The position numbers were made by a program, and so were the translations under genes. The notes beneath the pieces are model-generated. The model ran no database searches, was not told the origin of the DNA, and saw only the letters and a list, made by a program, of their open reading frames with translations. This document shows positions 22,214 through 62,534 of a stretch of DNA of 64,000 nucleotides, one piece after another. The DNA comes from Escherichia coli (GTDB taxonomy: Bacteria; Pseudomonadota; Gammaproteobacteria; Enterobacterales; Enterobacteriaceae): NCBI RefSeq assembly GCF_003334785.1, contig NZ_QOWV01000007.1, one strand, 5' to 3'. Numbering within the stretch: the first letter of the stretch is position 1; every line of letters starts with the position of its first letter.

Positions 22214-24457
22214 TTAGAAACGGAAGGTTGCGGTTGCAACGACCTGACGTTCTGCGCCCCAGAAGCAGCCATAAGTGTTAAAGCAGCTGGCGACGTATTC
22301 ACGATCGAACAGGTTGTTAACATGCAGCGCCACGTTGGAGCCAGCCATGCCGACTCGCGCCAGATCATAACGTACTAACGCATCCACGACCGTATAACTT
22401 CCCACTTTAAAGGAGTTAGCCGGATCACCATAACTGGAGCCAGTATAACGACCACCGGTGCCCAGCGTCAGACCTGAAAGCGGACCGTCAAAGAAGGTGT
22501 AGTCAGCCCACAACGAAGCCATGTGTTTTGGCACCTGTGCAGGCGTATTGCCTTTATAGGTAGTATCGGTGGTGTATTCCGCATCGGTGTAAGTATAAGA
22601 ACCGACTACGTTAACACTCGCCGACAGCGCCGCTTTCGCTTCGATTTCTACGCCACGTGCGCGGATCTCGCCACCTTCAACCGAGAAGAAGGAACCCTCA
22701 GGGTCCGCCATCAGGTTGTTGGTTTTAGTGAGATTATACACGGCACCAGTAACTACAATCGGACGATCTTCCGGTACATATTTCACGCCGACTTCATACT
22801 GCTTACCTTTAGACGGTGCGAAAATATTACCATCCTTCCCAACTTGCGAAGAAGGTTCAAACGATTCGCTATAGCTGAAGTAAGGTGTTACACCATTATC
22901 AAACAGGTAGTTAACACCACCACGCCAGGTAAACTGTTTGTCATCACGTTTATCGGTCGTCCCGGCAACGCGGTTAAGAGATTCTTGATCTGCCCAGTCA
23001 TAACGACCGCCTAGGGTGACCAGCACTTTATCCCACTGCGCCTGATCCTGAACATAAACGCCCGTTTGTTTCTGTTTATTCAGAATGCGGTAAGGGCCGG
23101 AGTTTGCCGGATCTTTGGCATTGAAGTCGAAATCGGTATTCACCGGATTGTACAGATTGAGCAGTGGCACAGAGTCGTCGTAACCAAACCAGGCGTTGAT
23201 GTCATTACGCATACGCATAAAGTCGACACCGGTCAGCAGGGTGTGGTCGATATCACCAGTGGCAAACTTGCTCTGCAACTGGGTATCAACGGAGAAGTTT
23301 TGCAGCTTCTCATCATCAACGACGTATTTACGTGCCAGATAATGGCCTTTATCCGCTGGCGCTAATGCCGCACACTGTTTGCTGTAAGCATTCGCCGGAT
23401 CGGAGCAGACGCCGTAACCATAAACGCTGTTTTGCGAGGTTTTGTTTTCAGCAAAGCGCAGGTTCTGACGCACAGTAAAGGTGTCGTTAAATTCGTGATC
23501 GAAGCTGTAGCCGACCATCTTCTCATTACGAGAATAGGTGTTGTTCTTCGCCCCTTCATTAAAGTCTGTCGGCAGACGCTTACCGTTCGGCAGCGGCTCA
23601 ACGGTTCCCTCTTTCGGCAACCAGCCGTAATAACCGGTTTCCGGCTCGTTCTGGAAGTAAGAAAGGAAGGTAAAATTGGTTTTATCATCCGGACGCCAGG
23701 TGAACGCCGGTGCAATAGCATAACGCTGCTCTTCTGACCCTTTCTGCTGGGCATTGGCAGAACGCGCAAGACCGGTCAGGCGATAAGAGTAAACACCGTC
23801 ATCATCCAACGAATCGCTAAAGTCAAAACCAGTCTGGAACAGGCTGTCAGTACCGGCTTTAAACTGAACTTCTTTCAGCGGTTCGGTGGTCGGACGCTTG
23901 CTGACCATATTCAACAGGCCGCCAGGACTGCTTTTACCGTAAAGCACGGAAACCGGGCCACGCATAATTTCAGCGCGTTCCAGCATATACGGGTCAATGA
24001 CCGCATCGTTATAGAAGTTGCCCTGCAACTTCAGGCCATTCAGATAGTTATTCTGGCTTTGGCCTTCTGCCGCAAAGCCGCGAATGATCAGGTGGTCATA
24101 GGTGTTGGATGCGCCACGCGTACCAACAGAGACACCCGGCGTGTAGCTAAGCGCTTCTTTTACCGACTTCGGCTGATGCAGCGCCATCTCTTCGGCGGTC
24201 ACAACAGAAATAGACTGTGGCACTTTTTGAATCGGCGTATCGGTTTTAGTGCCGGTAGCAGACTGTCGCGCCGCAATAGTTGCAGCAGGCCCCCATGCGC
24301 TTTCTTGCGGCGCAGGTGCAGCGGTAACGGTGATAGTGTCTTCTTTCGGTTCAACCGCTGCCTGTGCATAAACAGACATGCCGCTAACCGCTGTGGCTAC
24401 TACAACTGCGATTTTACGCAGTGAGTGTTTTGGCTGAGCAGTTTTGGAACGCGCCAT
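22214..24457 (-). CDS. fhuA: TonB-dependent ferrichrome outer membrane receptor
   Basis: 747-aa ORF with signal peptide, TonB box and C-terminal aromatic residue (ATFRF). Confidence 0.97.
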   Translation of the reverse strand: MARSKTAQPKHSLRKIAVVVATAVSGMSVYAQAAVEPKEDTITVTAAPAPQESAWGPAATIAARQSATGTKTDTPIQKVPQSISVVTAEEMALHQPKSVKEALSYTPGVSVGTRGASNTYDHLIIRGFAAEGQSQNNYLNGLKLQGNFYNDAVIDPYMLERAEIMRGPVSVLYGKSSPGGLLNMVSKRPTTEPLKEVQFKAGTDSLFQTGFDFSDSLDDDGVYSYRLTGLARSANAQQKGSEEQRYAIAPAFTWRPDDKTNFTFLSYFQNEPETGYYGWLPKEGTVEPLPNGKRLPTDFNEGAKNNTYSRNEKMVGYSFDHEFNDTFTVRQNLRFAENKTSQNSVYGYGVCSDPANAYSKQCAALAPADKGHYLARKYVVDDEKLQNFSVDTQLQSKFATGDIDHTLLTGVDFMRMRNDINAWFGYDDSVPLLNLYNPVNTDFDFNAKDPANSGPYRILNKQKQTGVYVQDQAQWDKVLVTLGGRYDWADQESLNRVAGTTDKRDDKQFTWRGGVNYLFDNGVTPYFSYSESFEPSSQVGKDGNIFAPSKGKQYEVGVKYVPEDRPIVVTGAVYNLTKTNNLMADPEGSFFSVEGGEIRARGVEIEAKAALSASVNVVGSYTYTDAEYTTDTTYKGNTPAQVPKHMASLWADYTFFDGPLSGLTLGTGGRYTGSSYGDPANSFKVGSYTVVDALVRYDLARVGMAGSNVALHVNNLFDREYVASCFNTYGCFWGAERQVVATATFRF

Positions 24458-24477
24458 TGGTATATCTCTGATGTAAA

Positions 24478-24530
24478 GTGAATGATAACGTAAACGAGAA
24501 TGATTATTATAAAGATAAGATAATATTCGA
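24478..24530. promoter_or_regulatory. fhuA promoter region with Fur-box-like AT-rich repeats
   Basis: gaatgataacg ... gaatgattattat ... gataagataatattc lies 20-75 bp upstream of the fhuA ATG and resembles GATAATGATAATCATTATC hexamer arrays. Confidence 0.55.
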
Positions 24531-24676
24531 AACGCTGGCGGGTTCGCAAGCGGTACGCAATCTGAGCGTTCCTGAAGGGTTAATAAACAACCAGATGAAA
24601 AGAAAGGGTTAATATCTTAGATGGGATGTTATTTTACCGGATGGCAACTCGCCATCCGGTATTTCACGCTTAGATG

Positions 24677-27211
24677 TTAATTACTACCAAACATATCCTT
24701 GATCCAACCGGCTACACCGTCGCTGTCTTTCTGCTCTTGCTGAGCAGGTTGCTGTTGCGGCTGTTGCTGCGGCTGAGAAGACTGATCAAACGGATTGCCT
24801 GACGGCTGCTGCTGCATCTCGCTCTGCTGGCACAGCGATTGCGGATCGCTGGTCCAGACCGGCAAGATACGCATGCCACCGCTGCAAACAAAGTTGCCGT
24901 CGTAGTCCACGCCCATATCTGCAATATCTTCTGGCGGAACAAGATTCAGCGGCGTTGGCGTCTGGTTAGCCAGATAACGCTGATAAATCGACATTGCCCC
25001 GCTGGCACCATACAGTTTGGTCGGCTGGTTGTTATCACGGCCGACCCAGGTGATGGTCACCGTGCTGCCGTCAATGCCCGCAAACCAGGTATCTACGTTA
25101 TTGTTGGTAGTCCCTGTTTTCCCTGCCAGATGCAGGTTCGGGTATTTCGCCCCAAGCTGACGACCCGTACCGCGTTGTACCACCTGCTGCATGGTCCATA
25201 GTGTCAGATACGCCGCCTGCGCCGGAACAGCGCGTTCCGCCTGCGGGAAGCTCTGATACAGCACTTTGCCATCTTCCGCGATTACCGAACGCAGCGCAGA
25301 AAGCGGTGCACGGTTACCACCGCTGGCGATGGTCTGGAATGCCTGCGCCACTTCGATTGGCGTTAAGTTCAACGCCCCCAGCAGCATTGCCGGAACCGGA
25401 TGCAACTGATCTTTCGGTACGCCCAGTTTAATCCAGGTCTCCGTAACCGCAGGCAGCCCCAGCGCCATCCCCAGATTTACCGTCGGCACGTTCATCGAAC
25501 GGGTCAACGCATCCACCAGCATCACTCTGCCGCTTTCGCTATAACGACGGTCATCATTCTGCGGTGACCAGACCTGGCCATTCGGCTGACGCAGCGCAAT
25601 TGGCGCATCCGCAATCCACGTATTCAGACGATAGATTTTCGGCTGGCTTAAGGCCGTCAGATAAGTCGCTGGTTTTGCAAGGGAACCAATCGAACGACGC
25701 GCCTGCATCGCACGGTTGTAGCCCGCAAACTGCGGCTCAGAACCTCCGACCATCGCACGAACTTCACCACTAAAGCGGTCGACGACCACAATCGCAGTTT
25801 CAAGATCGCTCAACTTACGCTGTTTCTTCAGTGCCGGAATGCCTTCCACGGCGGCTTTTTCTGCCGCGTCCTGGGCCACCGAGTCAAAGGTAGTGAAGAT
25901 CTTCACGCCGGAGAGATCTTTTACCTTATCGCCCAGTTTTGCCTGCAGCTCCTGACGCACCAGTTGCATAAAGGCTGGCTGAGGAGAGATCACCCCACCG
26001 CGCGGCTGAACCCCCAGCGGACGGGCACTCAACATGTCATAGAGTTCTTGATCAATAATCTGTTGCTGTTGCAGCAGACGCAGCACCAGATTACGTCGCT
26101 CCAGCGCCAGTTTTGGGTTACGCCACGGGTTGTAGATGGACGCCCCTTTCACCATACCGACTAACAGCGCCTGCTGGTCGAGGCTTAGCTCTTCTACCGG
26201 GCGACCAAAGTAATACAAGCTTGCCAGCGGGAAGCCGCGGATTTCGTTGTCGCCGCTCTGACCGAGATACACCTCGTTCATATACAGCTCAAGAATACGG
26301 TCTTTGCTGTAACGCGCGTCCATGATCAGCGCCATGTAAGCTTCGTTCGCTTTACGCCAGTAAGAACGCTCGCTGGAGAGGAACAGGTTTTTCACCAGCT
26401 GTTGCGTCAGCGTACTCGCACCCTGTACCGTGCGTCCGGCGGTCAGGTTTGCCAGCACCGCACGTCCGATTGAGTAGAGACTGATTCCATCATGCTCGTA
26501 AAAATGACGGTCTTCTGTCGCCAGCAAAGTATCCACCAGCAAATCCGGGAAACCACTGCGCGGCACAAACAGACGCTGCTCACCGTTTGGCGAAGAGATC
26601 ATGGTGATCAGACGCGGATCAAGACGGAAGAAACCGAACTGACGGTTGTTCTCCATATTGACGATCGTCGCCAGATGATCGCCATCAAAGGTCAGACGCG
26701 CGCGCACCTGTCCTTCTTTACTGTCCGGGAAATCAAACGGACGGCGAATCATCTCAATGCTGTTGGCCTGCACGGTAAATTCGCCAGGACGGGTCATTTT
26801 CGACACCTGACGATACTGGGTCGCCTCCAGCAGCTTCACCATCTCGTTCTTGCTGATGGTCATGTCTGGCTCAAGATTGACCATTCGGCCATAAACTGCC
26901 GCAGGCAGTTGCCAGACCTTGCCATCAATACGGCTACGAATTTTTTGATCGAGATAAACGCCGTAAATGGCGATCAGCACGGCAAAAACGATAGCCAGTT
27001 TTAGCAGTAGCCATAGCCAGCCGCGTTTGCCACGAGGCTTACGCCCTTTGCCTTTGCCCTTACCTTTGCGCGGCATCGGTTCTTCATCCTCATAGTCATC
27101 ATAATCGTCGTAATCATCGTCATCTTCGTAACGACGACGGCTTACCTTTTGTTTGACCGGACGCGTCGGTTTCCCTTTGCGTCCAATTGGCTCGCGGTCA
27201 TTCCCGGCCAT
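24677..27211 (-). CDS. mrcB: Penicillin-binding protein 1B (bifunctional transglycosylase/transpeptidase)
   Basis: The known 844-aa protein starts at [14 protein letters not shown] (27211); the ORF track starts 5 codons upstream. Has SxxK-type transpeptidase domain. Confidence 0.96.
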
Positions 27212-27308
27212 GCTTTTTCTCCGCAATATTCAGGCGCAAAAGCCCGATTTTCTGTTCTTCTGTTACAAGACAGAAGAAGATATCTCTCAAAATTTGTGCT
27301 CGATCGGT

Positions 27309-60680: not shown

Positions 60681-62534
60681 ATGAAAATGACTTTGCCGTT
60701 TAAACCCCATGTGCTGGCGCTAATTTGCAGTGCCGGGCTTTGTGCCGCCTCTACCGGGCTATATATAAAAAGCCGCACAGTGGAAGCGCCTGTGGAACCG
60801 CAATCGACACAACTGGCTGTGTCTGACGCTGCCGCGGTTACGTTTCCTGCAACGGTTTCCGCACCTCCCGTAACACCCGCCGTCGTCAAATCCGCATTCA
60901 GCACTGCACAAATAGATCAATGGGTCGCGCCCGTCGCGCTGTATCCCGACGCCCTACTTTCGCAGGTGCTGATGGCATCAACCTATCCGACAAACGTTGC
61001 TCAAGCAGTGCAATGGTCGCACGATAATCCACTTAAACAAGGCGATGCTGCTATTCAGGCGGTATCTGACCAGCCGTGGGACGCCAGCGTTAAATCACTG
61101 GTGGCCTTTCCACAATTGATGGCATTGATGGGCGAAAACCCGCAATGGGTGCAAAACCTGGGCGATGCTTTTCTGGCCCAGCCGCAGGACGTGATGGACT
61201 CGGTACAGCGATTGCGGCAACTGGCGCAACAAACCGGCTCGCTGAAGTCATCAACCGAACAGAAAGTTATTACCACAACGAAGAAAGCTGTACCGGTAAA
61301 ACAGACAGTCACGGCACCCGTCATACCATCCAATACAGTTTTAACTGCCAACCCCGTCATTACAGAGCCGGCAACAACCGTCATTTCCATTGAGCCCGCC
61401 AATCCTGATGTGGTCTATATTCCCAACTACAACCCAACCGTGGTTTACGGGAACTGGGCCAATACTGCGTATCCGCCGGTTTATCTGCCACCACCAGCCG
61501 GAGAACCGTTTGTTGACAGCTTTGTACGCGGATTCGGCTATAGCATGGGCGTTGCTACCACGTACGCACTATTCAGCAGCATCGACTGGGACGACGACGA
61601 TCATGACCATCATCATCATGACAATGATGATTATCATCACCACGATGGCGGTCATCGTGACGGTAATGGCTGGCAACACAACGGCGACAACATCAATATC
61701 GACGTCAACAATTTCAACCGTATCACCGGTGAGCATCTTACTGATAAGAATATGGCATGGCGGCACAATCCAAACTACCGTAATGGTGTGCCCTATCATG
61801 ATCAGGATATGGCAAAGCGGTTTCATCAAACCGATGTCAACGGCGGAATGAGCGCCACGCAATTACCTGCCCCAACGCGCGACAGCCAGCGTCAGGCGGC
61901 AGCAAATCAGTTTCAGCAACGAACACACGCCGCACCAGTCATTACACGAGATACCCAACGTCAGGCAGCGGCACAGCGGTTTAATGAAGCTGAACACTAT
62001 GGGAGCTATGACGACTTCCACGACTTCAGCCGTCGCCAACCACTGACCCAGCAACAAAAGGACGCCGCTCGTCAGCGTTATCAGTCCGCCTCGCCTGAGC
62101 AGCGCCAGGCAGTTCGCGAGAGAATGCAGACTAACCCGAAGATCCAGCAGCGAAGAGAGGCAGCGCGTGAGCGCATTCAGTCCGCCTCGCCTGAGCAGCG
62201 CCAGGCGGTTCGCGAGAAAATGCAGACTAACCCGCAGAACCAGCAGCGAAGAGACGCAGCGCGTGAGCGTATTCAGTCCGCATCACCAGAGCAGCGCCAG
62301 GTGTTTAAGGAAAAAGTACAGCAGCGCCCACTGAATCAACAGCAACGTGATAACGCCCGCCAGCGTGTTCAATCGGCATCACCTGAACAACGTCAGGTTT
62401 TTCGGGAGAAAGTTCAGGAGAGCCGCCCACAACGTCTAAACGACAGTAACCATACTGTCAGGCTGAATAACGAGCAACGGTCAGCAGTATGCGAACGTCT
62501 CTCTGAACGTGGAGCAAGAAGACTGGAAAGGTAA
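60681..62534 (+). CDS. yacH: Uncharacterised secreted repeat protein (DUF3300-like)
   Basis: 617-aa ORF with signal peptide (MKMTLPFKPHVLALICSAGLCAAS), a His/Asp-rich tract, and C-terminal tandem repeats of about 32-33 aa. Confidence 0.9.
   Translation: MKMTLPFKPHVLALICSAGLCAASTGLYIKSRTVEAPVEPQSTQLAVSDAAAVTFPATVSAPPVTPAVVKSAFSTAQIDQWVAPVALYPDALLSQVLMASTYPTNVAQAVQWSHDNPLKQGDAAIQAVSDQPWDASVKSLVAFPQLMALMGENPQWVQNLGDAFLAQPQDVMDSVQRLRQLAQQTGSLKSSTEQKVITTTKKAVPVKQTVTAPVIPSNTVLTANPVITEPATTVISIEPANPDVVYIPNYNPTVVYGNWANTAYPPVYLPPPAGEPFVDSFVRGFGYSMGVATTYALFSSIDWDDDDHDHHHHDNDDYHHHDGGHRDGNGWQHNGDNINIDVNNFNRITGEHLTDKNMAWRHNPNYRNGVPYHDQDMAKRFHQTDVNGGMSATQLPAPTRDSQRQAAANQFQQRTHAAPVITRDTQRQAAAQRFNEAEHYGSYDDFHDFSRRQPLTQQQKDAARQRYQSASPEQRQAVRERMQTNPKIQQRREAARERIQSASPEQRQAVREKMQTNPQNQQRRDAARERIQSASPEQRQVFKEKVQQRPLNQQQRDNARQRVQSASPEQRQVFREKVQESRPQRLNDSNHTVRLNNEQRSAVCERLSERGARRLER
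62061..62446 (+). repeat. Intragenic tandem repeats in yacH (about 4 units of 96-99 bp)
   Basis: Units 1 and 2 are near-identical at DNA level (tcagtccgcctcgcctgagcagcgccaggc[a/g]gttcgcgaga[g/a]aatgcagactaacccg); units 3 and 4 are diverged. Each encodes AARERIQSASPEQRQAVREKMQTNP-QQRR-like segments. Confidence 0.85.

Follow-up and report, generated by a model that had tools for sequence, protein, structure and literature searches.

The AT-rich interval at positions 24478-24530 is very probably (roughly 95%) the operator through which Fur controls the fhuACDB promoter. Positions refer to the window, i.e. the whole stretch of 64,000 nucleotides of E. coli DNA that was analysed. The fhuA Fur operator is already documented; it is real, conserved and ordinary. 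A preliminary description of this DNA had picked out three strings as Fur-box-like hexamer repeats, and all of them are found verbatim on the plus strand: GAATGATAACG at 24480-24490 (motif 1), GAATGATTATTAT at 24498-24510 (motif 2) and GATAAGATAATATTC at 24514-24528 (motif 3). The features of the region are compiled in Table 1.

Table 1. Features of the fhuA promoter region and conservation of its blocks (mean major-base frequency among 77 distinct aligned upstream regions)
Feature	Position in the window	Strand	Matrix score	Mean major-base frequency	Basis and remarks
fhuA coding sequence, 747 aa, first gene of fhuACDB	22214..24457	-			ORF list and RefSeq annotation of identical DNA; ATG at 24457
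mrcB	27226..24677	-			upstream of fhuA
-35 hexamer TTGCGA, 18-bp spacer to -10	24544..24549	-		0.94	promoter scan
-10 hexamer TATTAT, -12 to -7, within motif 3	24520..24525	-		0.97	promoter scan; spacing fits the E. coli and Klebsiella TSS
fhuA TSS, experimental	24513	-			Cappable-seq, MG1655 167428 (+ strand), score 31.4 (PMC4782308 supplement)
Core Fur site, TATAATAATCATTCTCGTT on the fhuA strand, palindromic type 9-1-9 / 7-1-7	24493..24511	-	19.6 bits		+3 to +21 from TSS 24513
Overlapping Fur site, 6 bp upstream of core	24499..24517	-	13.3 bits		centre 24508
Overlapping Fur site, 6 bp downstream of core	24487..24505	-	7.7 bits		centre 24496
Weak in-phase Fur site, 12 bp downstream of core	24481..24499	-	4.8 bits		centre 24490
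TTACGTTATCATTCA, identical to the proximal HypT DNase I footprint of the Salmonella fhuA promoter	24479..24493	-			PMC6397515; near-invariant in 77 upstream regions
AACCCTTTCTTTTCA, counterpart of the distal HypT footprint	24596..24610	-			one base off the Salmonella sequence, 14/15 (PMC6397515)
Fur array and HypT block	24478-24511			0.95	
Between -10 and core	24512-24519			0.74	
Flanks	various			0.71-0.76	

The window is E. coli K-12-like: its reverse complement corresponds to MG1655 (NC_000913.3) 127,942-191,940, with 10 differences in 63,999 aligned bases, and coordinates were converted as MG1655 position = 167,484 + (24,457 - window position). According to the ORFs and the RefSeq annotation, the gene order is mrcB-fhuA-fhuC-fhuD-fhuB. 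The interval is part of the 219 bp between mrcB and fhuA (the intergenic region, 24458-24676), immediately upstream of fhuA, and has a G+C content of 25% compared to 51% window-wide. The intergenic region is the same as in MG1655 base for base; none of the ten differences falls into it, and several are located in fhuA-fhuB and in the hemL area. The region also holds a hairpin at 24636-24660 on the minus strand, with 11 perfectly paired bp and a loop of 5 nt (ACCGGATGGCG AGTTG CCATCCGGT region), which lies 17 nt past the mrcB stop codon and is not followed by a U run on either strand. Its predicted energy is -20.9 kcal/mol (z-score -5.4), and it may be a terminator-like hairpin of mrcB or a protein-binding hairpin.

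The classic 19-mer Fur consensus GATAATGATAATCATTATC has no match with three or fewer mismatches anywhere in the 64-kb window, and the fhuA site agrees with it at 14 of the 19 bases (five mismatches). The 7-1-7 consensus TGATAATNATTATCA yields 18 three-mismatch matches in the window, with the fhuA core agreeing at 12 of 14 specified bases. Mismatch counting was rejected as a test: it fails to single out the fhuA site and ranks a triplet repeat in yacH above it. Since the counting of mismatches does not discriminate, we used a matrix learned from other Fur promoters instead. The yacH repeat, a run of GAT, CAT and GAC triplets within the coding sequence (61596-61641), harbors the closest matches to the classic 19-mer in the window (four mismatches) and scores 10.4 bits with the matrix; from its sequence it looks like a coding repeat and not like an operator.

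The matrix was obtained by unseeded de novo Gibbs sampling of the sequences upstream of 17 further Fur-controlled genes or operons of MG1655 (fepA-fes, fepD-entS, fepB-entC, gpmA, fiu, fhuE, sufA, cirA, exbB, bfd, ryhB, sodA, fecA, fecI, fhuF, tonB and mntH), with fhuA excluded, and was symmetrised; the resulting consensus is AATGATAATCATTATCATT. Scoring against such a matrix had been proposed as a check in the preliminary description, and it places the site at 24493-24511 (centre 24502) at rank one among the 64,000 positions of the window. Its 19.6 bits are within the range of the training sites (8.2-26.8 bits, n = 17). The number of sites with at least 19.6 bits that is expected by chance amounts to 0.006 per 64 kb at the composition of the window and to 0.0025 in the 219 positions of the intergenic region at 25% G+C. 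In 5000 dinucleotide shuffles of the intergenic region, neither this score nor the 45.4 bits to which the four in-phase sites add up (phased sum) was ever attained, and when the AT-rich 73-bp core was shuffled, the top score was attained in 1 of 5000 cases and the phased sum in none of the 5000. The sequence match and its statistical significance, together with the 6-bp phasing and the deep conservation described below, are what the present analysis shows.

The four sites follow each other in exact 6-bp steps, and the whole operator comprises 37 bp (24481-24517). Written along the fhuA strand, the array is CTTTAT AATAAT C ATTCTC GTTTAC GTTATC ATTCAC, which means forward hexamers, one spacer base and reverse hexamers, a pattern shared with the hexamer model of NAT[A/T]AT repeats. 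Since it matches the classic 19-mer at only 14 of 19 bases, the fhuA site is a mid-strength natural site, unlike the near-consensus sites of gpmA or ryhB. The closest class are the Fur box clusters of E. coli iron-uptake promoters (fepA-fes, fecI, cirA, fhuF, ryhB, sodA and others). For fhuA itself, Chen et al. 2007 (NAR 35:6762, Table 4) listed a cluster of 19.5 bits with three sites in 31 bp at MG1655 167439, i.e. window position 24502, 45 nt before the ATG (PMC2189734). It shares with our array the locus, the coordinate, the score (19.5 vs. 19.6 bits), the 6-bp overlap, the overlap with the promoter as well as Fur shift and repression. However, the present scan adds the fourth, weak in-phase site (4.8 bits) and thereby extends the operator from 31 to 37 bp.

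The likeness to Fur boxes that had been ascribed to all three motifs therefore stands for two of them. Motif 2 belongs to the core and motif 1 to the weak downstream sites: the good half of the site at 24481-24499 is GTTATCATT, the reverse complement of motif 1, and agrees with the Fur consensus at 8 of 9 bases. In contrast, motif 3 scores 0.4 bits with the Fur matrix and was discarded as a Fur site. It is made up of the -10 hexamer TATTAT (24525-24520) and of the non-conserved 24512-24519, an 8-bp stretch that is not kept in other genera and is GC-rich in most of them.

The binding of Fur in vitro and in vivo, the iron dependence of this binding and the derepression in the absence of fur have been shown in the literature. 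A gel shift with a fhuA oligonucleotide was positive at 150 nM Fur (Chen et al. 2007, PMC2189734). The Fur ChIP-exo data of Gao et al. 2023 contain a peak at 167456-167466 in MG1655 and at 167456-167468 in W3110, corresponding to 24475-24485 of the window, under iron-replete conditions only (PMC10164565 supplement). This peak is offset by 17-27 bp downstream of the matrix centre and overlaps the weak site at 24481-24499. In delta-fur strains the expression of fhuA, fhuC, fhuD and fhuB goes up; the log2 change of fhuA is modest in MG1655 (+1.09), reaches +5.0 in W3110 and is positive in eight of nine strains, with no value in the remaining one (PMC10164565). In agreement with this, Fur represses a fhuA promoter-lacZ fusion (Beauchene et al. 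2015, PMC4676285) and derepression in delta-fur was detected by qPCR (Gerken et al. 2020, PMC7315122). The matrix match together with the published gel shift, ChIP-exo and delta-fur expression data thus bears out the proposed iron-dependent repression of fhuACDB by Fur, including the two checks by Fur ChIP and by expression in a fur deletion that had been suggested for it. Since no DNase footprint of Fur on the fhuA promoter was found in the literature examined, we infer the extent of protection. Further Fur ChIP-exo peaks in MG1655 are located about 200 bp to each side of the operator, at 24269-24300 inside fhuA and at 24687-24723 at the end of mrcB (PMC10164565); a matrix match of 9.2 bits at 24673-24691 adjoins the peak on the mrcB side.

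The position of the operator relative to the promoter depends on the choice of the transcription start. The sequences TTGCGA and TATTAT, spaced by 18 bp, form a sigma-70 promoter with 9 of 12 matches, and the experimental start follows 7 nt past the -10 hexamer. In Klebsiella, 55 nt separate the start of the fhuA transcript from the ATG, and this start directly follows TATTAT, with TTGCC as -35 (PMC3415461 supplement); as far as the tables of Kim 2012 were available, they list fhuA for Klebsiella, with no fhuA entry found in the E. coli TSS table. Jo et al. 2019 number from a start at window position 24499, downstream of TATAAT at 24511-24506, and give as its source Huerta and Collado-Vides 2003, a paper about promoter-like signals (PMC6397515). 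We rejected TATAAT with +1 at 24499 as the main promoter: it has no usable -35, the first T of the hexamer is replaced by C in 56 of 77 relatives, and neither of the two experimental TSS data sets supports a start that goes back to promoter-like signals. With +1 at 24513, the array extends from -4 to +33, directly after the -10 hexamer, and the core from +3 to +21; with +1 at 24499, the core would extend from -12 to +7. For either start, Fur is located where RNA polymerase has to bind and to open the DNA. The operator covers the transcription start and the early transcribed region, not the -35 and -10 hexamers.

The arrangement is deeply conserved. A scan of one genome per species yielded 78 loci with FhuA relatives, from about 30 genera according to the record titles and with protein identities down to 58%. 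Among the 77 usable loci, the best Fur site within 300 bp upstream is found 43-49 nt before the ATG in 76, and the sole exception still has a 12.4-bit site at -44; a Fur site of at least 12 bits at -43 to -49 is therefore present in all 77 upstream regions. Of the related loci that were scored in register, all 72 have at least 14 bits at the equivalent of the core, all 72 are positive at the downstream site with centre 24496 (median 9.3 bits) and 71 are positive at the weak site with centre 24490. The upstream site with centre 24508 reaches at least 10 bits in 4 of the 72 loci (median 3.6 bits) and is strong in Escherichia only. In the alignment (Table 1), T1, A2 and T6 of the -10 hexamer are invariant in 77 of 77 regions, and the -35 reads TTGCTA in most genera. 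The main variable columns of the core are the central base (C/A, with zero information in the matrix), position 14 (C/A, with A as the consensus) and position 1 (T/C). This substitution pattern fits a Fur constraint better than a -10 function of TATAAT, the first T of which is C in the majority of the relatives.

Within E. coli, the 78-bp promoter-operator is present as a single copy in 5422 of 5426 complete genomes; it is identical in 3825 of them and at least 80% covered in 5419 of the 5422 genomes with a match. A longer query of 501 bp that crosses the intergenic region is covered to less than 80% in one place in 576 of 5425 E. coli genomes, and 27 additional bases are present between mrcB and fhuA in genome H1. 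The poorer coverage of the longer query, compared to the nearly complete coverage of the 78 bp, shows an insertion/deletion polymorphism between the end of mrcB and the -35.

The conservation of 24478-24511 is not attributable to Fur alone, since the block is transcribed as part of the 5' UTR, overlaps a HypT footprint and contains the TATAAT-like hexamer at its left end. HypT (YjiE) is a HOCl-sensing repressor of the LysR type, for which Jo et al. 2019 (PNAS 116:3740) described Salmonella footprints on TTACGTTATCATTCA and AACCCTTCCTTTTCA (PMC6397515). The proximal sequence is the same in the window, contains motif 1 and overlaps the downstream Fur sites, whereas the distal one, about 100 bp upstream, differs by one base. 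By sequence, both elements of the HypT operator are thus in place; binding is known for the Salmonella protein, and Jo et al. 2019 number from 24499 compared to the experimental 24513. Since 24479-24493 is also the proximal HypT operator known from Salmonella, the downstream end of the array probably serves two repressors, and a joint use by Fur and HypT may be the reason why 24478-24492 is so invariant although its Fur scores are low.

One could go further and assume that 24479-24493 is kept mainly as a proximal HypT operator that loops with the distal element at 24596-24610, and not as an extension of the Fur array. The Salmonella DNase I footprint on 24493-24479 with its 14/15 distal partner at 24610-24596 speaks for this, and so does the fact that the Fur matrix gives the stretch just 4.8-7.7 bits although its invariance equals that of the core. 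However, a HypT site is compatible with Fur binding too: the sites are in exact 6-bp phase with the core, GTTATCATT agrees so well with the Fur consensus, the Fur ChIP-exo peak at 24475-24485 lies on this stretch, and the evidence for HypT binding was obtained with the Salmonella protein. We regard a predominant HypT function as possible, yet rather unlikely. With similar reserve we put forward the composite view that 24478-24492 might be a transcribed operator for both Fur and HypT, that the -10 and +1 of Jo et al. 2019 might be 14 nt off with TTGCGA/TATTAT and +1 at 24513 as the real promoter, and that Fur would act at the start site and on the DNA transcribed first, and not at the -10 hexamer; taken as a whole, this view is tentative.

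It is very improbable that the invariant block is kept for a function of the fhuA mRNA leader (+3 to +36), for instance in pairing with a small RNA or in translational control, and not as DNA. With +1 at 24513 the entire block is indeed transcribed, and the conservation runs on to the ribosome-binding region CAGAGA. However, the substitutions that are permitted track the Fur matrix, including the free central base, which varies, and direct Fur binding data exist, while no evidence at the RNA level was found. There is also no match to an Rfam family: a scan of 24200-24900 gave chance-level matches only, with best E-values of 0.7 and far under the gathering scores.

Scarcely credible is the assumption that the AT-rich motifs are core promoter DNA only, that is -10-like hexamers and the discriminator/start region with an accidental likeness to Fur boxes, since, although TATTAT (24525-24520) and TATAAT (24511-24506) in the interval both resemble a -10 hexamer and AT-rich DNA inflates matrix scores (the per-position chance of at least 19.6 bits is about 100 times greater at 25% G+C than at the composition of the window), the expectation for the intergenic region and the shuffles of the 73-bp core given above already take this composition into account, the C found in place of the first T in most relatives makes TATAAT a poor -10 and is tolerated by the Fur matrix, and the published gel shift, ChIP-exo and delta-fur data contradict it.

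Apart from the fhuA locus, the window contains a few other Fur-like sites. The second-best matrix match, ATTCAGAATGATTCTCAAT at 2342-2360 with 18.3 bits, is located between map and tff/rpsB, and 75-93 nt separate it from the downstream start of map (methionine aminopeptidase) at 2435. It coincides with an iron-replete Fur ChIP-exo peak that is assigned to map (MG1655 189588-189600, window 2341-2353; PMC10164565). The Fur-like sequence TATGAAAATCGGCATCATT at 12787-12805 (14.1 bits) extends over the start codon of mtn (12788) and its first six codons and adjoins the mtn-dgt intergenic region; no published Fur peak was found for it in the ChIP-exo tables examined. AATAATAATCGCCATTATC at 15375-15393, located where clcA and yadW adjoin and 44-62 nt ahead of the erpA start, has five mismatches to the classic Fur 19-mer and 9.1 bits. 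The W3110 Fur ChIP-exo peak for clcA-erpA / yadS-btuF-mtn sits elsewhere, at 177012-177024, which is 14917-14929 of the window (PMC10164565).

Taking the interval as the Fur operator of fhuACDB, we propose the following sequence of events. Transcription of fhuA proceeds on the minus strand from the sigma-70 promoter with -35 at 24549-24544, -10 at 24525-24520 and +1 at 24513. When iron is sufficient, dimers of Fe(II)-Fur occupy the core at 24493-24511 and probably also reach the weaker sites in phase with it, each on another face of the helix; we infer both the occupation of the weak sites and the number of dimers. Since Fur would thereby cover +1 and the stretch to be contacted and melted by RNA polymerase, initiation would be blocked by what we take to be occlusion. 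When iron becomes scarce, apo-Fur leaves the DNA, and the cell makes the receptor for ferrichrome together with the corresponding ABC transporter.

The fhuA operator couples the synthesis of FhuA and FhuCDB to the iron supply, which is textbook knowledge. FhuA is also the receptor for the phages T1, T5 and phi80, for colicin M and for albomycin. Moreover, two sets of experimental TSS data and the conservation place the promoter 14 nt further upstream than it was put in at least one recent paper, and this shifts the positions of Fur and HypT relative to +1.
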